DNA of 64,000 bases from an uncultured Bacteroidales bacterium (GTDB lineage: Bacteria > Bacteroidota > Bacteroidia > Bacteroidales > F082): contig CAJOIS010000002.1 in NCBI GenBank assembly GCA_905234645.1, positions 59,326-123,325 on the forward strand, read 5' to 3'. Made by a program: the position numbers and the translations under genes. The notes beneath the pieces were generated by a model. The model worked only from the letters and a program-made list of their open reading frames with translations, was not told the origin of the DNA and did no database searches. Shown here in pieces: positions 2,199-29,417 of the stretch. The stretch's first letter is position 1; each line of letters opens with the position of its first letter.

Positions 2199-3341
2199 TC
2201 AAACATGTTGAAGCAACCATAAATGGAAAAACTTGTCATACACTTGATAGACACCTTTATCCATGGTCAATAAACCTTTATCAATCAATGCCGGCACCGC
2301 AGATTTCACAGAATTTGGAGAGACTAGCCCATACTTATACGCAAATCTTCCTGAAGTCAGATTCTCAGCCTTGCCCTCCTTCCCGATAGCCACAAGAACC
2401 TGGCTTTGCTTTTCAGGCAACTGATACAACAAATCCTCATAGATCAACGAAGAATCGTCTATAATACCCTGAATGGCAACGTTCACCATGTCAAGCCTGC
2501 AAATACCACCTTCGGGTGTACGTGAATAAAGCTCATTCATCACACGCTGCAGGTAATAAGTAACGCCATCAAATTGAGAATACAAAGTTTCCACAACAGA
2601 GGGGTCAAGGTCTTTTTCCCTATTCCTGAAATGCCACAGGCAAAAAGCTTTGTATTTTTCCAGCGGTATGAGTCTCAACCCATAAATAGTAACACTTTGG
2701 TAGAAAGGCCTAGCCGGAGACGTAAACATCGTCCCCATCAAATGCTGGCGCGAACCTGAAAAAACGAAGTTCGCATTACTACAATATTGCACATGCGTTC
2801 GCAAGGCCGCCTCAATGTTTTTGTCTTCGTACTTTGTGATTTGCTGGAATTCGTCTATGGCGACAAGGCAAGGTCTGTCAGCTTGTTGAAGATAAGCAAA
2901 TATTTCGTCCAGCGTTGTTGTTGGCGACTTGATCTCACCCACGCCCATAGTCCATGAAGGTAATCCATTAATGTCGAAACTAATGCCTGGCTTAACCGAG
3001 ACTAAGGCCGAAAGGAATTTCTCCCAAACCTTGCGCCCTTTGGGTTTCAATGTCTCAAGAATCACGCTTCCAAGTTTGCCAACCATCTCTGCCGCAGACT
3101 TGGTTGAGTAAATGTCAATGATAAAAGTATAATAATGATCGGCGAGGACAGGTTGTGCGAAGCAATGTCTCAGCAAATCGGTCTTCCCGTATCTGCGAGG
3201 CGAAATTAAGGCCACGTTGTTCCCATTCGTCAACAATCTGACAAGGTCTTCCGTCTCCTTTTCCCTATCACAAAAAAACGCTGGACCTATATATCCAGTT
3301 GTCACAAATGGATTATCCACAATAGTAGGGTTTGTTTTCAT
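2199..3341 (-). CDS. Stand-alone AAA/Arch_ATPase-type NTPase with C-terminal winged-helix (DUF234-like)
   Basis: Walker A is SPRRYGKT and Walker B is LVAIDEFQ. The MKTNPTIVDNPF start at 3341 is preferred over the track start at 3395. The gene is more AT-rich than its right-hand neighbour and is flanked by GT2 5' stubs. Confidence 0.7.
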   Translation of the reverse strand: MKTNPTIVDNPFVTTGYIGPAFFCDREKETEDLVRLLTNGNNVALISPRRYGKTDLLRHCFAQPVLADHYYTFIIDIYSTKSAAEMVGKLGSVILETLKPKGRKVWEKFLSALVSVKPGISFDINGLPSWTMGVGEIKSPTTTLDEIFAYLQQADRPCLVAIDEFQQITKYEDKNIEAALRTHVQYCSNANFVFSGSRQHLMGTMFTSPARPFYQSVTIYGLRLIPLEKYKAFCLWHFRNREKDLDPSVVETLYSQFDGVTYYLQRVMNELYSRTPEGGICRLDMVNVAIQGIIDDSSLIYEDLLYQLPEKQSQVLVAIGKEGKAENLTSGRFAYKYGLVSPNSVKSAVPALIDKGLLTMDKGVYQVYDKFFHLWLLQHV

Positions 3342-3425
3342 CTTAACTAATTCATCCTGCAAAAATACAATTTTTTTCCATAAAACGGAAATCATAAAAT
3401 GGAAAAAACACCTATTTTCCTCTCA

Positions 3426-4571: not shown

Positions 4572-5387
4572 TCATTCTTTGATATAATCCTTCCAAAAAG
4601 TATCATATTGGTACTTGGCCCAAGCATGGCAACCGAATGGCAGCGCGCCCCTTATGGCAAAGACCTCAGAAGGGAATCTCTCGAATGCAAACGACAAAGC
4701 CTCTTCAACACTTGGCTTTGTCAATTCATAATTGGATCCCTCCAGCAGTCCCGACCAAAAATCATCCTCGTTATATTGCCAACGCTTGGCAACAGAATAA
4801 GGTTTGTTCCTCCATCCCATCGCCATCAGCAGCCAAACGAGCCACCTTGAATAGGGCTTCTCTTTGAGTCCTATCCGTTCGGTGAGGTCTCCCGTTTTGT
4901 ACACATACTTCTTCCCGTTGAAGAAATCCATAAAGGCCTTGACACGACGGAGCGAAAAACCGCCATTGCCTACACGTGCCTGGTCGCGGTGAAACTCTAC
5001 ATCTGAAAACCTTCCGAAAATCGGAGCACCCACATAGTCATAACCTTTGCCGCACCATTCCATCAACTCGTCACGGAACACGTATGCATCGGTTTGGCAA
5101 ATTAGGACATACTCATAGTCGGCAAAGCGAGTATAAAAGTCCTTCGACAGCATTAGTCGGTTGTAGCCCTTTATCCCGTCAAAGAAGTATGGTTCAAACC
5201 TTTCATAATGCAAAACCACGCCCTCCGAACTGGCGAGATTGTCATATTGAGATGCATCCATTCCTTTGGGGCATACCAAGACCAAAGGATATTGGCCCAA
5301 CACACGCATCGTTTGACGCAGGGAAATCTCTTCCCACTTGTCAAAACTTGGCTTATAGACGGGTATGACTATGACGACTTTTTGCAT
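4572..5387 (-). CDS. Putative glycosyltransferase, DUF5672-like
   Basis: VIVIPVYKPS..., YDYVGAPI and GNGGFSLRR motifs that I recall from DUF5672-type proteins in glycan loci. Confidence 0.55.
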   Translation of the reverse strand: MQKVVIVIPVYKPSFDKWEEISLRQTMRVLGQYPLVLVCPKGMDASQYDNLASSEGVVLHYERFEPYFFDGIKGYNRLMLSKDFYTRFADYEYVLICQTDAYVFRDELMEWCGKGYDYVGAPIFGRFSDVEFHRDQARVGNGGFSLRRVKAFMDFFNGKKYVYKTGDLTERIGLKEKPYSRWLVWLLMAMGWRNKPYSVAKRWQYNEDDFWSGLLEGSNYELTKPSVEEALSFAFERFPSEVFAIRGALPFGCHAWAKYQYDTFWKDYIKE

Positions 5388-6325
5388 CAGTGACGGAACA
5401 AAGCATCAATCAACTTGAGCACAACCCGCATAAGGATCGACTTCTTCTTCGGGTTGTAGTATCTTTGGAACACCGCCCAATCAAACAAAGCATCCCGACA
5501 CACGGGAACCGTTTTCATCGGCATCGGAATCGAATAAAGCGGAAAATTGGCAAGGCGCGACGCTCCCAAGGTATGGGTGCCTTCCTCGTCAAATCCAATA
5601 TTGGAGACTTGGTTCCGTGACGCTACAATTGTAAGCGTATTGTTCAAGGTCTTGGCAAAGAACCACTGGTAATCCCACATGTGGGTCTGCTTCTCGTCGC
5701 ACTTGTCGAAAATCTTCTTATAATACTCACGATATACCTTCTTACCCAAAGCCTCCTCAACGGTTTTCCTCCCCTCTTCGGTATGCCATGCCTTTATGTA
5801 GTAATCAAACGATTTCCACGCCCGCGCCCATGAAGCCCAGCAGCCTAATGTGCCCGCACCGACTGTGGCAAAAAGATAAGGCGCACGATGGCTACGCCAT
5901 TTCAAATGCAAGTTGGTGGCCGTAATAGCCGACACCCGACTATCATCTTTGTATCGATCCAAGAGACATTCATAATAGGCAAAAGCCGACGGCGAAAGCA
6001 CACAATCGTCTTCAACAATGATTCCCTGCTCCACTTGGCCAAAGAACCATGTGATGCCTGATGTCGGGCCTGGCCCACAGCCCAAATTCTTTTCAGAACT
6101 ATTGAGATGCAACCGAGTTTGCGTCCCTGCCGTCAATTCTTCAACCACTTGGCGTACCTCGGCACATTTCCTTATATCTTCTTCATTCCAATCGCGTGCA
6201 CCGTCCTGAAACACATACAAATCCTGAGGTCGGGCTATCATGATAGCCTCCAACGCTCGACGCGTATGCTCGGGGCGGTTGAAGGCAACCAAAAGAACAG
6301 GGGTATGGAAGGGGATCATTCCCAT
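5387..6325 (-). CDS. Nucleotide-diphospho-sugar transferase (GNT-I/GT-A-like)
   Basis: [20 protein letters not shown] plus an EDDC acidic motif. Overlaps its neighbours by a few nt, so it is packed as part of the operon. Confidence 0.55.
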
Positions 6326-6981
6326 TTCTCAATCGTTTTGATGGGCTTGGCGGGATTGCCCGCCACCACCGTATTGCTTGGCACGTCTTTGGTCACCACC
6401 GAACCGGCGCCAATGATGGCACCGCTCCCTATGGTAACGCCTTTCAGCACCGTGACGTTCTTGCCAATCCAGACATGGTCGCCAATGACAATCGGCGCCA
6501 TCACCTTATCTTTTTTTCCGTCAATGCAATGCGTATCGGAATCAGCAATGCACACATTGTCTGAGATGGCGCAACCTTTGCCTATCTCGATATAATGGAA
6601 ACAATTCAAAGTGGCATTGGTATTGAGAAACGTACCTCCGTGCACCACCAGTTTGGCGCCTGGCGCCACGTAGATGGACGCGCCTTGGTAGAGTTTGAAG
6701 TCTCCCTCGCACACAAAAGTGCTGTCCCGGTCAAGTCTGAACTCAGAGACATAGCGACGCTTCCGCGTGGCAAACCAAGAATCGTTGACAACCAGTTCGC
6801 CAGATGCAAAACTCACCTTGGCAGTCTTGTCGATGTCGACAATCGACTTCGGACAAATATGGAACGAAGCCGCTCTGCCCAGATGCAGTTTCCTGCGCCA
6901 ACGGACAGACTTGTAGACATCAAATCTCTTGACAAACGCAATTGCCTTTACTATTTTCCTTTTCAAGCCCATAAGCATCAA
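6316..6981 (-). CDS. Left-handed beta-helix (hexapeptide) O-acetyltransferase
   Basis: C-terminal hexapeptide repeats: [38 protein letters not shown]. Confidence 0.8.
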
Positions 6982-7889
6982 GACAACCAGTTCCTACCTG
7001 ACAAAACATTAACTCTCCTGCTGTATTTAATAGCCTTGGCGTTCTTGCGCAAAAAGCAACAATCTTGCCAATGACTCTTCGCTTGTGACGTATTCAAAAG
7101 CAGGAGTTTGGACAACGCTTTTCTGAAATGATAGAAACACAATCTCCCAACGCTGACTTGTGAATTGATATCCGTGACTTCGGCCAACAATACGCTGTCT
7201 TTTGTTTGGACCTTTTTGTCTGTAGATGAAATACGACGCACCGTGTCGTGAACCGCGACACACATAGGGCATATTCCCGTTTTCATCTTATGGTATTTCA
7301 CTCTATGCAAATAATTGTCATCCTCGCCATAATGCGAAAAAATCGGATCAAAGCCGCCCACGGTCTCAAGTGTCTTTCTTGGCAACAGCCATGCCGCGGC
7401 ATTGACGTATCTCGTGTCATAGACCTCCTTTAGCCTGCCGAAATAAAGATCCTCAAACAATGCTTTATCGGTCACCCTACTGTCATCGAGGCATTTCACC
7501 AATCCCTTCTCCATCCCTGTCTTTTCCGCATTAAGATGTATCGGACTCAAAATACCGTATTCGGAGTGTTTCAGGTGAATATCAACCAATTTCTCAAGCG
7601 TATCCGCCTCCACCCATGCATCCTGATTGAGCAAGAACACATAGTCGCAACCATTTTCCAATGCATAGCGCATCCCAATATTGTTGGCCCTCCCGAACCC
7701 CAAGTTCTCCTTTGATTCAATCAGATGAATCTCCGGATAGTGTTCTTTGATGTATTCCGCCGTCCCGTCATTGGATGCATTGTCAACGACGACAGTCTGC
7801 ACTGGGATGGTGGACTCGCGCAACGAGGTGAAGCAACGATCGTACCATTGCTGGCCTTTATAGGTTACTATGATTACAAATAATTTCAC
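6978..7889 (-). CDS. Glycosyltransferase family 2 (rhamnosyltransferase-like)
   Basis: [23 protein letters not shown] motifs. Confidence 0.85.
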
Positions 7890-7899
7890 AACAATAGAG

Positions 7900-8853
7900 T
7901 TATCTCATACCAGCAAGAAGGCCGACCGAATCCAAATCATGGCACAGTTCCTTGGTAAACAATTCCGAGCCTTTCTTGTTCAGATGGTTGTAGTTATAAT
8001 AGTTGGAGCGGTCTTTGGTAATATCCGCATGGTAATAATCCAACACAGACACATTGTACCTCTTCGCTATTGCATCAAATATCGAATCAGTCACCCTGAG
8101 ATTACTTACCCTATCCACTATTGGATAACAAACAGGATACTTCACAAACACCAAAGGAATTCCTTCATTACAGCAATCCTCGGCAAAGTTCTCCAATTCA
8201 CGTACTTGTTTTTCGTCGATATCACTCTTCAAACTATCCTTCAGCATCTCTGTGGTTTCCCAACTATAGTCATTGCCTCTATAGCCCTTGTAAAGGCCAT
8301 CATCAGTAAATTCAGTTTTCCCGAAAAAAGATGCCAGCCCTGTCTCAACTTCCTCACGATAGCCAAAATACCTGTACAATGGGACATGCCGATCCATCCA
8401 AGTCAAGTGTTTCGTTTCGGCCACCAACCCCATCAATTCAGTATCATTTACATATGGAAAGAACTGTTCTCTCTCATATTGCACATCAGACATGATGTTA
8501 TAAGTACCAAAGAAACAAATATTGAGCAGTATGGTATGGGGTTTAGGATTAAAGCGCCTATAGATCTTGTAACGAATCAATTGAAACTGCAAAGAATGGC
8601 CGTCTATTCCAAGATTATACGAGTTAAGATTCAACATTGAATCCATCACATAAGTATTATAGCTACACCAAGCTTGCGAATTTCCCAACACAACCAAATC
8701 GGCATTGATTTCGTCCCCATAAATATCATTCCACGCAGCATATTTTCTCGTATTCACTTTTTTCAACCCCATGGTTATCATCACATCGACGGCCACTGCC
8801 AACAGCAGAAGTATCAACAACCACAAACAAAATCTACCAACGAACTGCTTCAT
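7900..8853 (-). CDS. Membrane-anchored SGNH-like protein, candidate DltD/AlgX-type acyl-transfer partner
   Basis: Has an N-terminal TM helix, block I-like VVLGNSQAW, GIDGHS and a C-terminal NHLNKKGSELF (block V-like). Sits directly downstream of the MBOAT gene. Confidence 0.5.
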   Translation of the reverse strand: MKQFVGRFCLWLLILLLLAVAVDVMITMGLKKVNTRKYAAWNDIYGDEINADLVVLGNSQAWCSYNTYVMDSMLNLNSYNLGIDGHSLQFQLIRYKIYRRFNPKPHTILLNICFFGTYNIMSDVQYEREQFFPYVNDTELMGLVAETKHLTWMDRHVPLYRYFGYREEVETGLASFFGKTEFTDDGLYKGYRGNDYSWETTEMLKDSLKSDIDEKQVRELENFAEDCCNEGIPLVFVKYPVCYPIVDRVSNLRVTDSIFDAIAKRYNVSVLDYYHADITKDRSNYYNYNHLNKKGSELFTKELCHDLDSVGLLAGMR

Positions 8854-8859
8854 TGTTCC

Positions 8860-10299
8860 TCAGAATTGGAAATAGATGAAACTCTCTGCATGACCGCCAA
8901 ACCAAAAGAGAGCGGCGACCAGCAAATAGTAGATGCCGAACTTCACGACATGGCTCTTCACGCCTCGCAAATCAAGCGCATGCTCTTTGTTGCGCTGCAG
9001 CCATTCGACAACAAAAAGAACCGTGATGCTTGCTAAAACAGGAATGTAATAGTGCCTTGTGTCAAGCCAAGGGATAGAGAAAAGACCATTTCCCAAAATA
9101 CCACTAAAATAACCCCAGGCTTGCGAAAGGCTTTCGGCTCTAAAAAGAATCAATCCGATACATATTATCATGAACGTTACCAGTCTCGAAACCCATTCGT
9201 AAGCCTTGTTATTCTTGAAGCCATGCTTCTTCTCAAAACGTTTCCTACCCTTGGCCGAATTCATCGAAATCACTATGAATATGCCCTGATAAAGGCCCCA
9301 CAACACAAAGGTCCAACCCGCGCCATGCCATAAGCCGCTGAGCAGGAACGTCACTATCATGCAGAGATTCCAGTATGCCAGTTTGTCGCTGGTGCCAATC
9401 ATCGGATAATACACATAATCCATAAACCATGTGGTCAACGAGATATGGTTGCGTTTCCAATAATCGGCAAAAGACGTGGCGAAATAGGGGTTGTTGAAGT
9501 TTCGCATCAGCCTAATGCCAAACAGTTTTGCCGTACCGATAGCAATGTCCGAATAACCAGAAAAATCACAATACAACTGGATGGCAAACAGGACTATGCC
9601 CAACACCAATGTGCTTCCACTTTGCGAGGCGAAATCAGGAAACACCCTATTCACATACACAGCGCAGTTGTCGGCCACCACCATTTTCTTGAACAGGCCC
9701 CAAAGCATCTGTCTCAAGCCATCGACCGCCAAATCGTAATCAAACTTTCTAGGCTTCTCAAATTGGGGCAACAGGTTGGTCGCCCGCTCAATGGGACCCG
9801 CCACCAACTGGGGGAAGAAACTCACGAAAGCAAAAAATTGCACAACATCCTTTGTCGGCTTCATTTTCCTTCTATACACGTCAATGCTATAACTTAACGC
9901 TTGAAAAGTATAGAAACTGATTCCCACGGGAAGGATGATATTGAGCAACAGCCCCTCTCTTTTTCCTCCGAGAAACACGTCGGCAAACGATCCAACAAAA
10001 AAGTCGTAATACTTGAAAATGCCGAGGATCAGCAGATTGAACACAATGTTCAAAACGCTCACCGCTTTCGCCTTTCTGGGCGTCTCCTTATACCTGTCAA
10101 TCAACAAACCGCTACCCCAACTGCAAAACGAGGTGAAGGCGATAAGGATGAGAAAACGCCAATCCCACCAGCCATAGAACACATAGGAAGCAATGACGAC
10201 AAACAGGTTTTGCAACTTCAGGTTCTTTGCAAACGCGAACCAATAAAGCAAAAACACTATCGGCAGAAAAATGGCGAATTCTATGGAATTGAACAGCAT
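8860..10299 (-). CDS. MBOAT family O-acyltransferase (AlgI/DltB-like)
   Basis: MLFNSIEFAIFLPIVFLLYW start, multi-TM, and the conserved His region LSGLWHGAGW. Confidence 0.85.
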   Translation of the reverse strand: MLFNSIEFAIFLPIVFLLYWFAFAKNLKLQNLFVVIASYVFYGWWDWRFLILIAFTSFCSWGSGLLIDRYKETPRKAKAVSVLNIVFNLLILGIFKYYDFFVGSFADVFLGGKREGLLLNIILPVGISFYTFQALSYSIDVYRRKMKPTKDVVQFFAFVSFFPQLVAGPIERATNLLPQFEKPRKFDYDLAVDGLRQMLWGLFKKMVVADNCAVYVNRVFPDFASQSGSTLVLGIVLFAIQLYCDFSGYSDIAIGTAKLFGIRLMRNFNNPYFATSFADYWKRNHISLTTWFMDYVYYPMIGTSDKLAYWNLCMIVTFLLSGLWHGAGWTFVLWGLYQGIFIVISMNSAKGRKRFEKKHGFKNNKAYEWVSRLVTFMIICIGLILFRAESLSQAWGYFSGILGNGLFSIPWLDTRHYYIPVLASITVLFVVEWLQRNKEHALDLRGVKSHVVKFGIYYLLVAALFWFGGHAESFIYFQF

Positions 10300-11298
10300 C
10301 TATCTACATTTTAGGAGGCAACCTCCCCATGAATAGCCTACACCGAACCCAGCAACAACCACATTCCCCAGCAATCTACCCTCTTTTCGTGCTTCCGATA
10401 AAGCGATCGGAATTGTTGACGACACCGTGTTGCCAACCTCGGACATATAGAAATAGGCCTTGTGCTCGTCAATCTCCATCAAATCGAACAAGCAATCCAG
10501 CATGTATTTGTTGGCTTGATGGAACACATAAAGGTCGACATCATCTTGACTGACATTATTTTTGGCAATTACTTTGTCGACGGCATCCGGAACCGTATCC
10601 AATGTGAAATTGAATATCTCCGAACCATTCATATACAAATGGTCCGAAGAGACCGGATTCCCCGATTTGTCGTAAGCCATGTCGCCGATCCGACCAGGAT
10701 GGCGCATCGCTCCCGACTTTACTATTAGGTCTTCTGCCCCTTTGCCATCCGTGCCCAATTCACAACTGCCTATCTCGGCAAATCCATCCGACGACACCAA
10801 AGTAGCCGTCGCTGCATCTCCGAAAATCGTTCGGTTGCCCTTATCGCGCTCATGTATGTATTTCGAATAGGTCTCCGCTGTCAAAAGCAAAACATTGCTG
10901 GCCGTATGGCTTTCGACCAGTCCCTTTGCCAACGCCAGACCGTAAACGAAACCCGAACACCCCAAATTGAAGTCCAAAGCGCCGCATGACGTCTTCAGCC
11001 CCAGACGACGCTGAAGCAAACAGGCTGTTGTCGGAAGGAAATAGTCAGGACTTTGTGTGCACAACAAGACAAAATCTATGCAATTCTTGTCGACATTCCA
11101 CTCGTCAAACAAGGATAAGGCCGCCTTTTCCGCTAAGTCAGAAGCGCACTCATCGCTCTTAACGACATGCCTATTGACCACTCCCACCTTTTTGGCAATC
11201 TTTTCCACCGACCATTCGGGGAAGTCCTCGACCAAGGCCTGGTTAGACAAGATTGTTTCGGGCAAATAGTAGGATATTGCCTTGATGAAAGTCGCCAT
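10300..11298 (-). CDS. FabH-like 3-oxoacyl-ACP synthase III family protein
   Basis: Cys-His-Asn triad motifs GCSGFVYGL, FHQANKYM and GNTVSSTIP. Its stop abuts the MBOAT ATG. Confidence 0.85.
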   Translation of the reverse strand: MATFIKAISYYLPETILSNQALVEDFPEWSVEKIAKKVGVVNRHVVKSDECASDLAEKAALSLFDEWNVDKNCIDFVLLCTQSPDYFLPTTACLLQRRLGLKTSCGALDFNLGCSGFVYGLALAKGLVESHTASNVLLLTAETYSKYIHERDKGNRTIFGDAATATLVSSDGFAEIGSCELGTDGKGAEDLIVKSGAMRHPGRIGDMAYDKSGNPVSSDHLYMNGSEIFNFTLDTVPDAVDKVIAKNNVSQDDVDLYVFHQANKYMLDCLFDLMEIDEHKAYFYMSEVGNTVSSTIPIALSEARKEGRLLGNVVVAGFGVGYSWGGCLLKCR

Positions 11299-11531
11299 TA
11301 TCCTAGTTTGTTCGTGACCAGTTCATACACATCCTGAATCGTATCGGCCTCTTGTATTTCGGCCCCACTGATTCTGATGCCATAGTTTTTTCTGCACATG
11401 GCAATAATTGTCAATCCTTGTAGAGAGCTCCATTCCTCCAACTCTTTGAACTTCAGCATTGGAGAAAACGCTTCTGCTTCAGTATCGTCAAAACACTCAG
11501 CAAAATTTGATACAAATTGATTGATATCCAT
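11298..11531 (-). CDS. Dedicated acyl carrier protein (77 aa)
   Basis: Small and acidic. EWSSLQGL matches the W-D/S-S-L phosphopantetheine-site pattern of glycan-locus carrier proteins. TAATG 1-nt overlap with the KASIII gene. Confidence 0.7.
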   Translation of the reverse strand: MDINQFVSNFAECFDDTEAEAFSPMLKFKELEEWSSLQGLTIIAMCRKNYGIRISGAEIQEADTIQDVYELVTNKLG

Positions 11532-11562: not shown

Positions 11563-12549
11563 TCACTCGAACAAGCCTTTCAATTGTTCCATGAAATTCT
11601 CTTCAAGCCTCTCGACTTTGATTTTGAACGATTTAAAATCCACATTCTGCAAATCATAATTTACAAGCATTTCTGCTATTTTGCTCTCAATTTGCTCGGC
11701 ACACATCCCGTCTTCCATCTTATATTTCTGCGGTATGGCCACATCAAAATCGTTGGAGGCAGCATTATGATTGGCCACCAATATATTGCAGCCATAAAAA
11801 ACGGCCTCCTTCGGCATGCGTTCCGGTCCACCGAAATGGCCAAAATCTACATAGAGTTTCGATTTTTTGTATCTCTCAGCCAAACCTTCTGGAGTATACC
11901 CTTTCAACGGGACATAATTGAAGCGGCCTCTTTCCAACAGTTCCGTCATGATGGCCGACGGCTTGCTCGGGTTATACAGCACCACGTCCTCCCGTTCGGT
12001 GGGAAGATCCACATTGCCCATCCTCAGGAAGTCCAAACTGATGGGCTCGACCAAATAATCCACCTTTGATTGCTTATACGACTGACTGACATACAAATAA
12101 GTGTATTTCGATGCACACAAATGCCAGCAATTGTCGGGATTGAAATCGATATGGCGATAATGGCTCAGATCCTCATGCAAAAGTCTTCGTTTCATTAGAG
12201 TGGCACGCTCTTTCAATGTACCTTTCTTCACCTCGTTTGCATGAAGGCTCAGCCACCAAATGCATTTCTGTGCTTTCTTGAAACCATTAAGACACCATGG
12301 TGCATTTTCCGGAGCAATAATATAATTACCGACCTCATCCTCAATCTCTCCATACCTAACCACAGAAACCTCATATTGCTTATAGCGATCTATCGATTGC
12401 ACGTCTGGGAAACCCGAATAAGTATAATAAACTGTATAGACAGCCATTCCCAACTTACGCATGTAATACGCCAGTTGGTGCAATGCTTCGGGACCTCCCG
12501 AGCAGAAATGAGCTGGGGTGAATATATAATATCTTGCCTTATTACCCAT
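11563..12549 (-). CDS. Hypothetical, possibly GT-B fold glycosyltransferase
   Basis: C-terminal FGGPERMPKEAVFYGCNILV resembles the GT-B E..EA..G motif. The ATG at 12549 (MGNKARYYIF) overlaps the upstream stop as ATGGGTAA. Confidence 0.4.
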   Translation of the reverse strand: MGNKARYYIFTPAHFCSGGPEALHQLAYYMRKLGMAVYTVYYTYSGFPDVQSIDRYKQYEVSVVRYGEIEDEVGNYIIAPENAPWCLNGFKKAQKCIWWLSLHANEVKKGTLKERATLMKRRLLHEDLSHYRHIDFNPDNCWHLCASKYTYLYVSQSYKQSKVDYLVEPISLDFLRMGNVDLPTEREDVVLYNPSKPSAIMTELLERGRFNYVPLKGYTPEGLAERYKKSKLYVDFGHFGGPERMPKEAVFYGCNILVANHNAASNDFDVAIPQKYKMEDGMCAEQIESKIAEMLVNYDLQNVDFKSFKIKVERLEENFMEQLKGLFE

Positions 12550-15579: not shown

Positions 15580-16359
15580 TCAAATCCGTTTGCCTGTTAA
15601 TCTATAATAATCCTCTCCAAGAAGTGACTCCCTATCATTCAAGCCCAACACCAATCGTGCTATTATCGGATGATTGAACGCAAGGTTGATTTTCTTCTCC
15701 GGTATCGTTTTATCTGAAAAAATGATGATGCCATGTTTAGCATACAAGCATTTGTCAAACTTCTCAGCTATCACACTCAGACTCTTCCGGGAATAAAACG
15801 CTACATGTTGCCCAGTTTCAGTAGCATAATACCACCAATCCATTACACGAGGAGCTGGTTGTGGAATAATCTCAGAGGTACATATCAGAGTGTCAGACAA
15901 TGCGAACAACTTTTCAAAAACTTCCAACGGATTAGGCAAATGCTCAAGCAATTCAAAAGAAGTCACAACTTCATAATGATCCCGCTGCATTTCATGTCCC
16001 TTAGCAAACAGATTCTCACAATACTCATCATACCATTCAAAGTCCCATCCTTTATCACGCATCATTCTAACAAACATCCCATAACCTCCGCCAAAATCAA
16101 GCAGTTGTCCTGTCGGATTAATAATCTTCAGAACAGTATCAACCACATTTGAAAGATGGATATTCCTTGCAACCAAACCAATATCACTATCCGTGATTGC
16201 CGAGGAGTAAGCTTCCTTAAGCCAATAGGGTTCTTCTGTTTGTACGAATCCGCAATATTGACATGCGCAATAATGTACGGAATACTTACCGAGCACTGTC
16301 GCGTGGTCAAAACACTCTGTTTTTCCCCCACATATTTTGCATTTCAAATCCTTATTCAT
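15580..16359 (-). CDS. Class I SAM methyltransferase with N-terminal 4-Cys zinc ribbon
   Basis: CKICGG..CACQYCG followed by LLDFGGGYGMF (motif I). The ATG at 16359 overlaps the upstream TAA as ATGAATAA, which suggests translational coupling. Confidence 0.75.
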   Translation of the reverse strand: MNKDLKCKICGGKTECFDHATVLGKYSVHYCACQYCGFVQTEEPYWLKEAYSSAITDSDIGLVARNIHLSNVVDTVLKIINPTGQLLDFGGGYGMFVRMMRDKGWDFEWYDEYCENLFAKGHEMQRDHYEVVTSFELLEHLPNPLEVFEKLFALSDTLICTSEIIPQPAPRVMDWWYYATETGQHVAFYSRKSLSVIAEKFDKCLYAKHGIIIFSDKTIPEKKINLAFNHPIIARLVLGLNDRESLLGEDYYRLTGKRI

Positions 16360-17770
16360 GCATTTCTTTTCTTTTTTCACCGATATAAACAATCCTATTG
16401 GTTTCCAGCTCTTCACGATGAATTAAAACAAAAAACTCCTCGAAAGCACGCTTAAACGATCCCTCTGTATACCATTCCGGCATCGGAGACATCTTTTGAC
16501 CATCATGTACCCCCAGAGCTTCATATTCAACAACAATATATTTATTTGTGTATAATGAAAACCTTTCAAAAGCCGCATATAGAGGAACTCCTTGTTGTAA
16601 TACGAGGCGATTTGGCATAGTACAAGCTATTGCAATATCAGATTGAACTCGTGAACAGAGCGATGCCAGATCAAATGGAAAAACAATGTTAGAGTAAAGA
16701 ACATCTATGGGCAGTTCGTTCTCCTTGAAGTATAAATAAGTCCTGTCAACGGCAGTCCCATCATAATTAATGACGAAAACATGATCAAACTGTCCTGATT
16801 GATGCAACAAGACCGAAAGACTCCCAATATTTCCAGACAAATCAACGGCGCTTCTAGCATCAGAGCAGTGTGCTTTTATTAAATCGACAATTTTCACAAA
16901 TTGTGAAATTTGTTTCCCTTGTCCTACTGGACACCGATCATTTTTCCTGACATCACGATTCTTTTTACTCAGCTTTACGACATCCTCTATTGTAGGATTA
17001 ACGAACCCATAACTACAAGTAATATGGAAGACATCTTTCTTTAGTACACAATTCGAGACTCTGTTGACCAATTGGAACAACCATACCGGCGAACTTCCGT
17101 TGAAAGAAAACCTGAACTGTCTAATATGTATCTGGTATGAAGATGAAAGCAATACTTTTTGTCTGAAGAAGGGAGTATCAAGGAATGATTGTCTAGGAAG
17201 AAGGCGATTCTCGGAAAACATATCGTTTGCGTCAAGAATATTTCTAAGGATGCTGTATTCTTCATCAACCCACAATAAAAGCAAGAGATAACACTTTTGA
17301 AGGAATTCTTCTTTCGCGACCCATTCTTTTCCCTTCCTTTTAATAATACTACCAATATCAAAAAAAACCGGCCTGCCTTTATGGAAGGTTACATTAAATG
17401 GATGGGCATCTTTTAACTCATACCCATATTGATTGCACAATTCATTAACTTTTAAGATATGAATTGCTGCATCCTTGAACATTTCAAATGACCACTCATT
17501 TGGTTTACTAATGTAGCACGTTTCATGTTTCAAAACAAGAGGATTTCCCTCAATCTGAATCTCGTCCGTAATATAAGTATTGGGAATAAACCTCAATTGG
17601 ATTAGTTTCTGAAACAACTCCGATTCCAACAATTCCCTACAAAGAACTTCCGATGATTTATAAATCATACGGTAATACCCTCCCCCATATTCAAAAACCC
17701 GGCCAAAAGTATCCACAACAGAAGGGCCACAAAAATGAAGGTCTTTTATCTTAATCATCGAAAAGTCCAT
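16352..17770 (-). CDS. Two-domain protein: N-terminal kinase-like module plus C-terminal Rossmann methyltransferase-like module
   Basis: LKDAHPFNVTF..FFDIGS resembles the HGDLHPGN / IDxG catalytic motifs of APH/choline-kinase-type kinases. The C-terminal VDLSGNIG..VFVINYD resembles SAM-MTase motifs I/II. The alternative start at 17758 forms an ATGA overlap with wzt. Confidence 0.6.
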   Translation of the reverse strand: MDFSMIKIKDLHFCGPSVVDTFGRVFEYGGGYYRMIYKSSEVLCRELLESELFQKLIQLRFIPNTYITDEIQIEGNPLVLKHETCYISKPNEWSFEMFKDAAIHILKVNELCNQYGYELKDAHPFNVTFHKGRPVFFDIGSIIKRKGKEWVAKEEFLQKCYLLLLLWVDEEYSILRNILDANDMFSENRLLPRQSFLDTPFFRQKVLLSSSYQIHIRQFRFSFNGSSPVWLFQLVNRVSNCVLKKDVFHITCSYGFVNPTIEDVVKLSKKNRDVRKNDRCPVGQGKQISQFVKIVDLIKAHCSDARSAVDLSGNIGSLSVLLHQSGQFDHVFVINYDGTAVDRTYLYFKENELPIDVLYSNIVFPFDLASLCSRVQSDIAIACTMPNRLVLQQGVPLYAAFERFSLYTNKYIVVEYEALGVHDGQKMSPMPEWYTEGSFKRAFEEFFVLIHREELETNRIVYIGEKRKEMHE

Positions 17771-19026
17771 TTTTGATCAACAAGACACATACTTCTTCCG
17801 AGCGGATAAAATCCCGTCTTACAGAAAGTGCTTTGTATTACTTTAAACTCGATTGCGTGCTGCACATAATCGATCATATTGCCACTGGTGTCAAAACATA
17901 CCAAATTGACAAAATACTCACCTGCTCTTAATGCAAAATCCGGACTAATGTCGATTCTTACCGTTGTGTCCCTAGTCAATGTTACCGAGGTCCCCAATAC
18001 GGATTTCGAGTCCATCCAAAGAGCACATTCATTTTGCATTGTATAAATGCTAACCCCAATTCTCGGATTTATGATTTTCTCTTTAGGTGATAATACAATT
18101 TCAATAGAGAGAGGGGTATCATCATTGATTGTGCTAGCGCCAGATAATCCATCAATCCGTATAGCAGTAACTCGGCATATACCACTTCCCTCTCGGTCAG
18201 TCCTATCATTTATAGCAACAGCATTATTTGTCGTCTCGCACCTCAGATAATAATCCACACATTCATCGGCTTTCCCCGTAAAATCAACAATACCGTTTTT
18301 CAATACGACGCCATTGATACACAAATTCCTTACCGCCGCCATATTGTGGCTTACAAACAGAACGGTCCTTCCCTCTCCCTTACTTACATCCTGCATCTTT
18401 CCAATAGCTTTTTTCTGGAACTCAGCATCACCCACGGCGAGAACTTCGTCTACAACAAGAATTTCAGGTTCAAGGTGAGCAGCTACAGCAAAACCAAGAC
18501 GCACCATCATACCACTAGAATAGCGCTTTACTGGCGTATCAATATAGCGTTCGCAGCCCGAGAAACCAACAATTTCATCCAGTTTACTCTTTATCTCCTG
18601 TTTGGTCATTCCCAAAATAGCACCATTCATATAAATATTTTCTCGTCCTGTCAGTTCCCCATGAAAGCCCGTACCTACTTCCAAAAGGCTAGCGATGCGG
18701 CCCTTTGCCCGAATCGTACCCGTGGTTGGAGCCGTTACTTTTGAAAGGAGTTTCAGCAATGTCGATTTTCCGGCTCCGTTCTTTCCGATAATGCCCACCA
18801 CATCGCCCTGTTCCACCTTGAAATCGATGTCCTTCAAGGCCCAAACATAGTCGCTATCAGCGGCTTTGGATCGATCGTTCACCGAACCCACCTTAAGAAA
18901 CGGGTCTTCCTTCCCCAAGATATTCATTTGCCACCATCTTTGCAGATCACTACTCAGTGTGCCACTGGAGACCAAGCCCAGACGGTACAACTTACTAACA
19001 TTATTGAATTCTATTGCTGTTGACAT
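17755..19026 (-). CDS. wzt: Polysaccharide ABC exporter ATP-binding protein Wzt with ~170-aa C-terminal extension
   Basis: Walker A GKNGAGKST, signature YSSGMMVRL, Walker B ILVVDE. Residues ~250-423 form an extra beta-rich domain (coordinates ~17758-18279). Confidence 0.9.
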   Translation of the reverse strand: MSTAIEFNNVSKLYRLGLVSSGTLSSDLQRWWQMNILGKEDPFLKVGSVNDRSKAADSDYVWALKDIDFKVEQGDVVGIIGKNGAGKSTLLKLLSKVTAPTTGTIRAKGRIASLLEVGTGFHGELTGRENIYMNGAILGMTKQEIKSKLDEIVGFSGCERYIDTPVKRYSSGMMVRLGFAVAAHLEPEILVVDEVLAVGDAEFQKKAIGKMQDVSKGEGRTVLFVSHNMAAVRNLCINGVVLKNGIVDFTGKADECVDYYLRCETTNNAVAINDRTDREGSGICRVTAIRIDGLSGASTINDDTPLSIEIVLSPKEKIINPRIGVSIYTMQNECALWMDSKSVLGTSVTLTRDTTVRIDISPDFALRAGEYFVNLVCFDTSGNMIDYVQHAIEFKVIQSTFCKTGFYPLGRSMCLVDQKWTFR

Positions 19027-28169: not shown

Positions 28170-29417
28170 CTAATTGTTCTTATTAACTATAACTTGAGCT
28201 ATCCTCTCCCTCCACAAGTCGGGCACTTGTGCCTCGGCAGCAAAAGTCTTCCAGTTGCTTATCGCATGACTCACCTCCCGAACCACGCCCTCAGCCTGTG
28301 ATATATCGTTCTCCTCGGCAAAACGCAACAGGTCAGCCTCGGTGATGCCGTCCGTCTTAATACCCAACGAAAGAGAATGCCTGTTAAAATATTTCGGTCC
28401 GTCCAAATCTATCGTAAACAGCATATCATACGCGGGAGCCAAGCTCCATGTGCCTTGCTTGTCCATCAAGAAGGAAAAATTCTTGCTGTGGTCATCCACA
28501 TTGCCACCCAACACGTTAAAGACCATACGACGGTACAGCTCCCTCTGCTGTGACTCAGGGAGGCGCAAACGACGACATACCGAAAACAACTCATCGTATG
28601 AGGTGGCATCAGGATCCATCGCCGCCAAAGTTAGCACATGCACTTTTTCCCCTTTTTGACGGTCGAACCGTTCTGTGAGAAAATGCCGCTTCCCCTCAAT
28701 CGTCATCAGTCGGCTGGGCATCATTGCGATACCGGCAGCACACGCCATCTTGTAGTAGGCATATTCAACCTCTGAGAAAGGAAATTCCTTGTCATCATTG
28801 AATTTCAAGATATAGTGGACATAATCACTTGACAAATCAGCCTGTCCCGACCTGATGTCACCTTCCTCATTGATGGCAATGACCGCCTTGGCCCGCTTGC
28901 CGCCAGCCGAGGTCCCCACCCGATACAAATCCTCCAGCAATATGTCGTCACCCTCCTTAAGCAGAATCTCTTGTCTTTCTTCCTGAATGGCAAGGGCAAG
29001 GTGATACAACTCCTCCACAGGAATAGGCATATTGCCCCCTGTCAACAGTTGCGCCGGCTGGAACTCCAATGCTCCCATGCCTCGTTTCCCTATGAATGAG
29101 AGGCGGTCGAGCGGGTTGAGTTGCTGCGAATTGATATTGTTTTGTTTAGCCCAAGCCTCAAACACGCGGTTACCCCAACGGTCGGGCAATGAATCCGCCA
29201 CAAAAGGAGGTAGGCCAGCATATAGTTTATCGCCATTACCATGCCGTGGCAACAAGGCAGACGGCGATTGTATCGAGCACCACAAAGGAGCCACTTCCCA
29301 CCCCGTCTCGAGAAATTCCTTCTCAAAGACGAACGTAGAGCAGCGTTTGTGGCTATCCCACGAAAGATAACCCAACACTTTTCCCCAAAGCCATATTGCT
29401 ATTGAGTTATTTCCCAT
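28170..29417 (-). CDS. hipA: HipA-family serine/threonine kinase toxin
   Basis: N-terminal coupling domain (WLWGKVLGYLSWD) and the catalytic GNVDDHSKNFSF motif. Confidence 0.85.
   Translation of the reverse strand: MGNNSIAIWLWGKVLGYLSWDSHKRCSTFVFEKEFLETGWEVAPLWCSIQSPSALLPRHGNGDKLYAGLPPFVADSLPDRWGNRVFEAWAKQNNINSQQLNPLDRLSFIGKRGMGALEFQPAQLLTGGNMPIPVEELYHLALAIQEERQEILLKEGDDILLEDLYRVGTSAGGKRAKAVIAINEEGDIRSGQADLSSDYVHYILKFNDDKEFPFSEVEYAYYKMACAAGIAMMPSRLMTIEGKRHFLTERFDRQKGEKVHVLTLAAMDPDATSYDELFSVCRRLRLPESQQRELYRRMVFNVLGGNVDDHSKNFSFLMDKQGTWSLAPAYDMLFTIDLDGPKYFNRHSLSLGIKTDGITEADLLRFAEENDISQAEGVVREVSHAISNWKTFAAEAQVPDLWRERIAQVIVNKNN

Follow-up and report, generated by a model that had tools for sequence, protein, structure and literature searches.

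Polymer acylation by an MBOAT (membrane-bound O-acyltransferase) working with a protein of the SGNH type is currently divided into two classes, the Dlt system, which uses a carrier protein and transfers D-alanine, and systems that use acyl-coenzyme A (acyl-CoA) and carry out essentially acetylation (PMC12148441). The latter, of the PatA/AlgI type, take acetyl from acetyl-CoA without a carrier protein, and the two classes also differ in where the FxYxxF acyl-shuttle motif resides: at the MBOAT's own C-terminus in PatA/AlgI-type proteins and on a separate microprotein, DltX, in Dlt (PMC12148441). The one case characterised so far in which an acyl group passes from a carrier protein across the membrane is that of D-alanine, destined for the teichoic acids of Gram-positive bacteria. 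Here we analyse a stretch of 64,000 nucleotides from an uncultured Bacteroidales bacterium (contig CAJOIS010000002.1; the whole stretch is hereafter the window). At 7900-11531 on its minus strand four genes encode an acyl carrier protein (ACP), a 3-ketoacyl-ACP synthase III (KASIII), an MBOAT and an SGNH-fold protein. We consider it rather probable, judging from sequence comparison, that these genes form one module that O-acylates an ABC-exported glycan with a non-acetyl group carried on its private ACP. The support for such coupling is comparative, and what we say of the chemical steps, of donor and acceptor, and of the group transferred is deduced from it.

The ACP gene comes first in the direction of transcription (11298-11531, minus strand) and encodes 77 residues, the assignment resting on the open reading frame (ORF) and a Pfam PP-binding match. 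It is followed by the gene for a FabH-type KASIII of 332 residues (10300-11298, minus strand; ORF with N- and C-terminal Pfam ACP_syn_III domains), then by that for a PatA/AlgI-type MBOAT of 479 residues (8860-10299, minus strand; ORF with PF03062), and lastly by that for a DltD-like SGNH-fold protein of 317 residues with an N-terminal membrane anchor (7900-8853, minus strand; ORF with AlphaFold and Foldseek support). The genes are tightly packed: the ACP stop and the KASIII start share a 1-nt overlap (TAATG), the MBOAT ATG stands immediately after the KASIII stop TAG, and a gap of 6 nt separates the MBOAT stop from the ATG of the 317-residue protein. These junctions, all read directly from the DNA, leave no space for a separate microprotein gene within the module. 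The original prediction, which drew attention to this locus, had given the same four minus-strand ORFs, the TAATG overlap and the abutting MBOAT start, and we found each of them where it had been placed. Moreover, the four genes are met again in the same order in independent loci from metagenomes and genomes, and the arrangement is therefore not a product of chance.

The module had been described as Dlt-like in architecture. This holds for its parts, since a carrier protein, an MBOAT and an SGNH protein are all present, but not for the kind of MBOAT, which is of the PatA/AlgI type with a fused FIYFQF motif and no DltX. In Dlt, an acyl group moves from a carrier thioester through the MBOAT and an acyl-tyrosine shuttle to an anchored SGNH protein and so to an envelope polymer, and we infer the same route here from the genes. 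The likeness extends to individual components, in that the 317-residue protein finds its best matches in DltD, the MBOAT aligns to DltB, and part of the MBOAT stretch whose sequence tracks the presence of the carrier aligns to the DltB helix on which DltC docks. Several differences set the two apart. The adenylating enzyme DltA is replaced in the window module by a FabH-type KASIII, and neither the module nor the rest of window 1-45 kb encodes an AMP-binding (DltA-type adenylating) protein. DltX is a separate microprotein in Dlt, whereas the FxYxxF motif is fused to the C-terminus of the window MBOAT. The carrier is not a DltC orthologue, having a WSSL site and 2LML as its closest solved relative. 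The host is a Gram-negative member of the Bacteroidales and the acceptor presumably a Wzm/Wzt-exported glycan, whereas Dlt belongs to Firmicutes, and the acyl group cannot be D-alanine. With PatA/PatB, AlgI/AlgJ/AlgX and WssH/WssI the module shares the MBOAT catalytic histidine, the C-terminal FxYxxF motif and a separate SGNH partner. It departs from these systems in that the MBOAT is translationally coupled to a private ACP and an acyl-forming enzyme, and in that its donor-side segment represents a distinct subtype.

The ACP is a borderline match to the Pfam PP-binding family (20.9 bits against a cutoff of 20.8). A profile built from 13 ACP orthologues matches approximately 20 solved ACPs, of which the best is 2LML (E-value 2.8e-5), a protein listed in the PDB simply as a 'putative acyl carrier protein'. 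The WSSL motif aligns to WDSL/DSL of the solved ACPs, with Ser36 (codon 11424-11426) falling on the phosphopantetheine serine, and Glu33-Trp34-Ser35-Ser36-Leu37, within EEWSSL, are invariant across the 13 sequences. Ser36 is the predicted phosphopantetheine site, in keeping with the modifiable serine that the WSSL motif had been expected to supply.

The KASIII matches both Pfam ACP_syn_III domains (N-terminal, E-value 8.5e-21; C-terminal, 8.9e-25) and NCBIfam PRK09352 (254 bits against a cutoff of 249), whilst its best PDB match is 3GWA, a Burkholderia FabH paralogue (E-value 1.6e-100). The Cys-His-Asn triad that had been read from this FabH-like protein is borne out by the invariance of Cys114 (10957-10959), His260 (10519-10521) and Asn290 (10429-10431) in 24 homologues. 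These residues align to C112, H244 and N274 of what we take to be the E. coli FabH sequence, in which the expected residues are present. At the positions that we take to be the AcpP-docking residues of E. coli FabH (R249, K256 and K257), the window KASIII has Tyr265, Asp272 and Leu273, a set of residues that would fit a private ACP. The KASIII is the proposed maker of the acyl-ACP.

The MBOAT matches PF03062 (E-value 1.3e-22), and its residues 124-387 align to the DltB structures 6BUG and 8JEM (E-value ~1e-24), placing its predicted catalytic histidine, His323 of a WHG motif (9331-9333), on DltB His336. Against NCBIfam LTA_dltB it reaches 171 bits, the cutoff being 375. Its C-terminal hexapeptide, FIYFQF (8863-8880, minus strand), was read from the sequence as an FxYxxF acyl-shuttle motif, and such a motif stands at the C-terminus in 34 of 34 related MBOATs examined. 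By analogy the tyrosine of FIYFQF is the predicted covalent acyl intermediate. Because the motif is fused to the MBOAT C-terminus, the protein is PatA/AlgI-like and not DltB-like in architecture, and would need no DltX.

The evidence that most directly ties this MBOAT to its upstream neighbours lies in its donor-side segment, residues 270-364 (9208-9492, minus strand), which holds 26 positions diagnostic of ACP-KASIII linkage. All 11 MBOATs beside ACP-KASIII carry 25-26 of the 26, against 0 of 26 in 24 others. The positions were first defined on six ACP-KASIII-linked MBOATs and a second round added new loci. Among the high scorers is the MBOAT of locus L039, where the genes are ordered differently, and among those that score zero is L040b, the other MBOAT of a locus that does contain an ACP-KASIII pair. 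In bootstraps by a distance method, the six linked MBOATs form one clade in 200/200 replicates for residues 250-390, compared with 2/200 for residues 50-250 and 0/200 for residues 390-479. Likewise, the identity of the window MBOAT to the carrier-less MBOATs of L003, L005 and L006 is 79-86% over residues 1-250, falls to 48-49% over residues 250-390 and is 63-68% over residues 390-479. The window MBOAT is thus a mosaic, and its C-terminal part (390-479) follows the type of SGNH partner instead of ACP-KASIII linkage. Because the linkage signal skips the part of the MBOAT that is physically nearest to the KASIII gene, we argue for selection and regard hitch-hiking as unlikely.

The location of the signature points in the same direction. 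Residues 293-314 align (HMMER) to helix HC and the start of transmembrane helix 8 (TMH8) of DltB, and positions 298 and 301 align to DltB Met302 and Val305. In DltB, Met302, Val305, Ile306, Met309, Lys312 and Arg317 of HC/TMH8 touch DltC where the tunnel opens on the cytoplasmic side (PMC11035591). The gene linkage, taken with the co-variation of the HC-equivalent segment, suggests that the ACP may dock on the MBOAT. Across the wider set of carriers, 14 alignment columns within residues 293-365 separate every carrier-linked MBOAT from 17 carrier-less ones; for example, the carrier-less proteins have Gly301, Arg312 and Asn313, and Lys or Arg at position 354 is found only in carrier-linked MBOATs. 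We rejected the loss of basic residues in this segment as proof of lost CoA binding, because DltB keeps some of them. Context, namely an ACP translationally coupled upstream and an MBOAT subtype that tracks the presence of the ACP, argues against an acyl-CoA donor used without a carrier.

A survey seeded with the KASIII, drawn from look-ups of the encoding contigs, gave 11 distinct loci in which the KASIII is at least 73% identical to that of the window. ACP-KASIII adjoins an MBOAT in 10 of these 11 and an AT3 acyltransferase in the remaining one. It directly precedes the MBOAT in nine (the window, L004, L014, L030, L035, L037, L038, L040 and a contig of GCA_016648615.1), and in L039 it comes after the MBOAT-partner pair. 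The co-occurrence that the original prediction had proposed to look for is therefore found as regards ACP, KASIII and MBOAT, with the partner protein being the variable element. Downstream of the MBOAT we find the 317 family, an AlgX-type SGNH protein (PF16822) in L030, which adds to the likeness with AlgX, a 335-residue family in L037 and a 302-residue family in L040. A second survey, consisting of one profile scan of genome contigs for the 317 family, gave 27 Bacteroidota loci. The 317-family protein adjoins an MBOAT in 24 of them and window-type ACP-KASIII is present in only 2 (L004 and L014). The MBOAT-SGNH pair is a widespread cassette, and ACP-KASIII is an add-on to it.

Some of the surveyed loci have features of their own. 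L032 (5768-8253) and L033 have ACP-KASIII followed by a stand-alone AT3 protein (PF01757) with no MBOAT, and in L004 (4278-5309) a 70%-identical AT3 protein is encoded immediately upstream of the ACP, which hints that AT3 proteins may also take acyl-ACP; AT3 acyltransferases have been described as users of acyl-CoA (PMC9558356). In L014, a 55-codon fragment of an MBOAT N-terminus (5078-5269) lies upstream of the ACP and the downstream MBOAT gene (6552-8001) is frameshifted near codon 45. The fragment looks like the footprint of a recombinational insertion of an ACP-KASIII-MBOAT cassette, or else a sequencing error in a metagenome-assembled genome (MAG). On the contig of GCA_016648615.1 (15,911 bp) and in L040 (1-8981), MBOAT-partner cassettes are repeated in tandem, three or four to an array. 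One of these arrays has two different feeders: its first MBOAT is preceded by MaoC, a split transketolase and an ACP, and its second by ACP-KASIII. The end cassettes of L040 are identical (302-residue partners 100%), reflecting duplication or an assembly repeat.

These neighbourhoods also bear on whether ACP-KASIII might prime a lipid, for instance a lipid A-like acyl chain or an anchor, and play no part in esterifying the glycan. The usual role of KASIII enzymes is to start fatty-acid synthesis, and the protein of the nearest solved carrier, 2LML, presumably sits in a gene cluster related to lipopolysaccharide. However, no elongating KAS, ketoreductase, dehydratase or enoyl reductase is encoded nearby in any of the 11 loci, ACP-KASIII is consistently adjacent to membrane O-acyltransferases, and lipid priming would leave the co-variation of the MBOAT unexplained. 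We give this explanation very little credence.

The last component of the module, the 317-residue protein, gave only sub-threshold matches to AlgX, OatA and SGNH/GDSL proteins in sequence searches of Pfam and the PDB, with no detectable similarity to DltD. Its AlphaFold model, built with 50 homologues (pLDDT 92.3, pTM 0.90), has an N-terminal helix at residues 2-30 and agrees with the SGNH fold proposed for it. In a Foldseek search of the PDB the top 11 matches are all DltD (3BMA, 6O93, 7DXM, 6PFX; E-values 2.5e-6 to 8e-5), and generic GDSL/SGNH enzymes rank after them. Assignment of its GNS to block I and of its NHLNKKG to block V is upheld by conservation, as Gly57 and Ser59 of the GNS block (Ser59 codon 8677-8679), Gly85 and His290 of the NHLNKKG block (7984-7986) are invariant in the 50 homologues, and Asn111 is at least 90% conserved. 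The protein thus has the Ser of block I, the Gly of block II, the Asn of block III and the His of block V that SGNH enzymes share. From this model we propose that the 317-residue protein is the DltD-like final acyltransferase to the glycan.

A related ACP-KASIII pair occurs in a different setting. In a sister clade (L034, L036 and L041) the KASIII is ~66% identical with the same triad and the ACP is 39-48% identical with a D/EEWSSL motif. The sister operon encodes a PglD-like LbH transferase, the ACP, an SDR/KR ketoreductase and the KASIII, with a DegT aminotransferase further downstream, and the sister cassettes carry no MBOAT-SGNH pair. As found in L034 (4059-8569), L036 and L041/L042, the operon also has EamA, ATP-grasp and GT2 genes and a gene for a 491-residue protein with no Pfam match. 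The pattern of PglD-like transferase, SDR/KR and DegT fits a series in which condensation yields a 3-oxoacyl-ACP, the product is reduced and an amino sugar is N-acylated with it. The operon thus probably serves to make N-(3-hydroxyacyl) amino sugars by N-acylation in the cytoplasm. Sister and window cassettes have homologous ACP and KASIII proteins and both lie inside glycan loci. The sister cassette has its dedicated SDR/KR, PglD-like and DegT proteins, whereas the window clade is joined to transmembrane O-acyltransferases and has no ketoreductase in any of the 11 loci.

The sister clade gives some footing to the idea that the window genes are two sets of unrelated neighbours, with the MBOAT and SGNH proteins forming an acetyl-CoA-dependent O-acetyltransferase of the AlgI/AlgJ or PatA/PatB type and ACP-KASIII supplying a short (3-oxo/3-hydroxy)acyl-ACP to a cytoplasmic acyltransferase, for example a hexapeptide (LbH) enzyme by which a nucleotide sugar would be N- or O-acylated. 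Candidates for such an enzyme are at hand. A GT2 glycosyltransferase gene (6978-7889, minus strand; Pfam GT2) lies downstream of the 317-residue protein and is followed by a hexapeptide acyltransferase gene (6316-6981, minus strand; Pfam Hexapep), the second gene beyond the module, and at 32-34 kb of the window there is a pair of DegT and hexapeptide genes. Moreover, the block of MBOAT, 317-family protein, GT2 and hexapeptide transferase is kept in L005 without ACP-KASIII; L003, also without ACP-KASIII, has the same downstream genes with the hexapeptide gene ~1 kb further on. Characterised non-Dlt MBOATs use acyl-CoA (PMC12148441). Set against this is L030, in which ACP, KASIII, MBOAT and the AlgX-like protein stand alone among housekeeping genes, far from glycan genes or other acyltransferases and with no LbH transferase around. 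L035 and L038 have no hexapeptide gene within the sequence seen, and the lack of a ketoreductase throughout the MBOAT-linked clade is a further departure from the sister pattern. Independent neighbours would also leave unexplained why the MBOAT subtype divides with ACP-KASIII (11/11 against 0/24) around the predicted donor entrance. On this evidence we think an arrangement of unrelated neighbours unlikely, though not negligible.

Further points weigh against a coupled module and must be set beside the evidence for it. Given the apparent role of the sister clade in cytoplasmic N-acylation, ACP-KASIII pairs are not intrinsically feeders of MBOATs, and the window locus does contain the two hexapeptide acyltransferases named above. 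MBOAT-SGNH pairs occur without any carrier protein in 16 of ~23 assessable genome loci, and since most such pairs lack a carrier, the pair can work from another donor, presumably acetyl-CoA. The MBOAT signature could in part reflect the shared ancestry of a co-inherited block. As to the 317-residue protein, its Foldseek TM-scores to DltD are modest (TMq ~0.41) and its periplasmic orientation is assumed. It also has no Asp of a DxxH motif three residues before the block V His, the window sequence being N287-Y-N-H290 and the family consensus N-P-S-H; the place of the missing triad member may be taken by a different acid (Asp281, at least 90% conserved), or the enzyme may work with a Ser-His dyad. 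Finally, a search of window 1-45 kb for genes of a ketoreductase, FabD or a phosphopantetheinyl transferase found none, and priming of the ACP and the KASIII steps would therefore depend on housekeeping enzymes.

Linkage of an MBOAT to an acyl-ACP maker is not confined to KASIII. In sibling Bacteroidota loci the genes for a different maker enzyme and an ACP stand immediately upstream of those for an MBOAT homologous to that of the window and for a member of the 317 family. An FkbH protein (PF21211, E-values 1e-68 to 3e-87) occurs with ACP, MBOAT and a 317-family SGNH protein in L008 (4562-8954), L022 (1385-5828) and L028 (6545-12306). Of these, L022 belongs to Mucilaginibacter gynuensis JCM 17705, a strain that has been cultured. 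In L028 a glyoxalase-fold gene separates FkbH from the ACP, and the gene of the SGNH protein is located upstream. An AMP-binding enzyme, a GNAT protein and an ACP are found beside MBOAT and 317-family genes in L024 (143-5002) and L007 (3565-6638, minus strand), from Flavipsychrobacter and a yak Bacteroidales MAG, an organisation that is Dlt-like apart from the additional GNAT. The L007 cassette, which also has a glyoxalase-fold gene, is divergently transcribed and lies between two MBOAT-SGNH pairs. On the GCA_016648615.1 contig, a split transketolase and an ACP precede an MBOAT. The sibling cassettes occupy the same slot as ACP-KASIII, with the same MBOAT and 317-family partners and shared residues at the 14 MBOAT columns. 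They differ from the window module in that their ACPs are of the standard PP-binding type, ~27% identical to the window ACP, and in their acyl-forming chemistry.

The sibling loci also refine the suggestion that a KASIII replaces DltA. Replacement is supported by the adenylating enzyme that takes the same slot in L024 and L007, but the function of loading enzyme that this implied is less fitting, condensation being more likely than simple loading. In a pure loading scheme the module would be coupled, with the KASIII acting as an acyl-CoA:ACP transacylase that moves acetyl, propionyl or butyryl groups without condensation. FabH enzymes have acyl-CoA:ACP transacylase side activity and some natural-product KASIII-like enzymes are dedicated acyltransferases; the want of a ketoreductase, dehydratase or FabD gene nearby would also suit such a scheme. 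However, His260 and Asn290, the residues that drive malonyl decarboxylation, are invariant across the clade, and shifting an available acyl group from CoA to ACP offers no obvious advantage when related MBOATs are carrier-less. The ketoreductase pairing of the sister clade implies a 3-oxoacyl product. Moreover, FkbH and transketolase generate carrier-bound acyl groups that have no CoA equivalent. Given an intact triad, a sister clade that points to a 3-oxoacyl product and sibling makers that supply groups not available from CoA, it is more likely that the KASIII builds a 3-oxoacyl group on the ACP than that it merely loads one. We regard loading without condensation as distinctly unlikely.

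Under the preferred reading, a coupled module with a condensing KASIII, Ser36 of the ACP would receive the phosphopantetheine group, and the housekeeping FabD would most likely charge the ACP with malonyl. The KASIII would take a short acyl-CoA primer on Cys114 and condense it with malonyl-ACP to yield a short 3-oxoacyl-ACP, for example acetoacetyl-ACP, the alternative at this step being simple acyl-CoA:ACP transacylation. An acetoacetyl product might be transferred as such or after reduction by the housekeeping FabG. The acyl-ACP would then dock on the cytoplasmic face of the specialised MBOAT, as DltC does on DltB, and the acyl group would pass through the MBOAT to the tyrosine of its FIYFQF motif on the periplasmic side, as suggested by homology to DltB and PatA. 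The DltD-like SGNH protein would receive the acyl group on Ser59 and esterify a sugar hydroxyl of the polymer.

The sibling loci raise the prospect of a broader, modular family in Bacteroidota, in which carrier-fed MBOAT-SGNH pairs would be served by interchangeable acyl-ACP makers and would produce non-acetyl glycan esters. Donor specificity would then reside in a recombining cassette of roughly 100 residues (270-364 of the window MBOAT) that faces the cytoplasm, with the last 90 residues of the MBOAT co-varying with the SGNH partner. We hold the chances of this proposal to be about even. The likely products differ with the maker: acetoacetyl or 3-hydroxybutyryl for KASIII, glyceryl for FkbH, glycolyl for the split transketolase and an amino or organic acid for the adenylating enzyme.

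The module is embedded in an ABC-transporter-dependent glycan locus of low GC (38-45%). This locus encodes a Bac_transf initiating transferase, DegT with a hexapeptide transferase, Wzm, Wzt with a Wzt_C domain, Glf, a methyltransferase, an AT3 acyltransferase and many GT2/GT4 glycosyltransferases. Over window 1300-29500 GC is 0.37-0.45 with strongly negative GC skew, and over 30000-64000 it is 0.47-0.56; low GC relative to the surroundings is typical of horizontally exchanged surface-glycan loci. At 15580-19026 (minus strand), Wzt with its C-terminal Wzt_C carbohydrate-binding domain is followed by a 472-residue protein and then by a Methyltransf_23 protein, an arrangement that resembles the chain-terminating methyl capping of E. 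coli O8/O9a-type systems.

Immediately upstream of the ACP lies a 341-residue ORF (11563-12549, minus strand), whose true start is likely Met14. It has no sequence match in Pfam, NCBIfam or the PDB, and was assigned as a glycosyltransferase of GT-B fold by AlphaFold (pLDDT 91.2) and Foldseek, in which GT-B glycosyltransferases rank first (8XSH, TMq 0.67). This fold ruled out a phosphopantetheinyl transferase, a ketoreductase or an acyltransferase as the product. As modelled, the enzyme appears to stand outside the acyl chemistry, and it may add the sugar that becomes acylated. Homologues (62-75% identity) are encoded directly upstream of the ACP in L032 and L035, and in L038 a 331-residue ORF, not domain-scanned, takes the corresponding position.

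Elsewhere in the locus, a HipA-family toxin kinase gene (28170-29417, minus strand; HipA_C E-value 2e-45, Couple_hipA) lies between the Wzm and AT3 genes, and an AAA-type ATPase gene (2199-3395, minus strand; weak ATPase_2/AAA_14 matches) lies amid glycosyltransferase genes. Long plus-strand ORFs run across 1-32 kb, for example at 7870-8640 (256 residues, antisense to the SGNH gene). They have translations of low complexity, lie across minus-strand genes that are well supported, and are almost certainly spurious. An Rfam scan of the window gave zero matches. Terminator-like sites were at chance level, and promoter-like sites numbered 22 against 14.2 expected (sd 2.9), in a scan whose coverage does not extend to Bacteroidetes promoters.

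In the literature searched we found no description of an MBOAT-SGNH system linked to ACP/KASIII, FkbH or transketolase, nor of AMP-ligase-ACP cassettes beside such pairs in Bacteroidota, although coverage was incomplete and an earlier description is possible. If true, a PatA/AlgI-type MBOAT fed by a carrier protein would bridge the Dlt and acyl-CoA classes. Residues 270-364 offer a concrete candidate determinant of donor choice in bacterial MBOATs, and the presence of an ACP and a maker enzyme directly beside an MBOAT would provide a genomic rule for predicting non-acetyl glycan esters. For the organisms themselves it would mean that Bacteroidales of the gut and rumen put unusual esters on O-antigen-like glycans, with consequences for phage receptors, for antibody epitopes and for the breakdown of the glycans.

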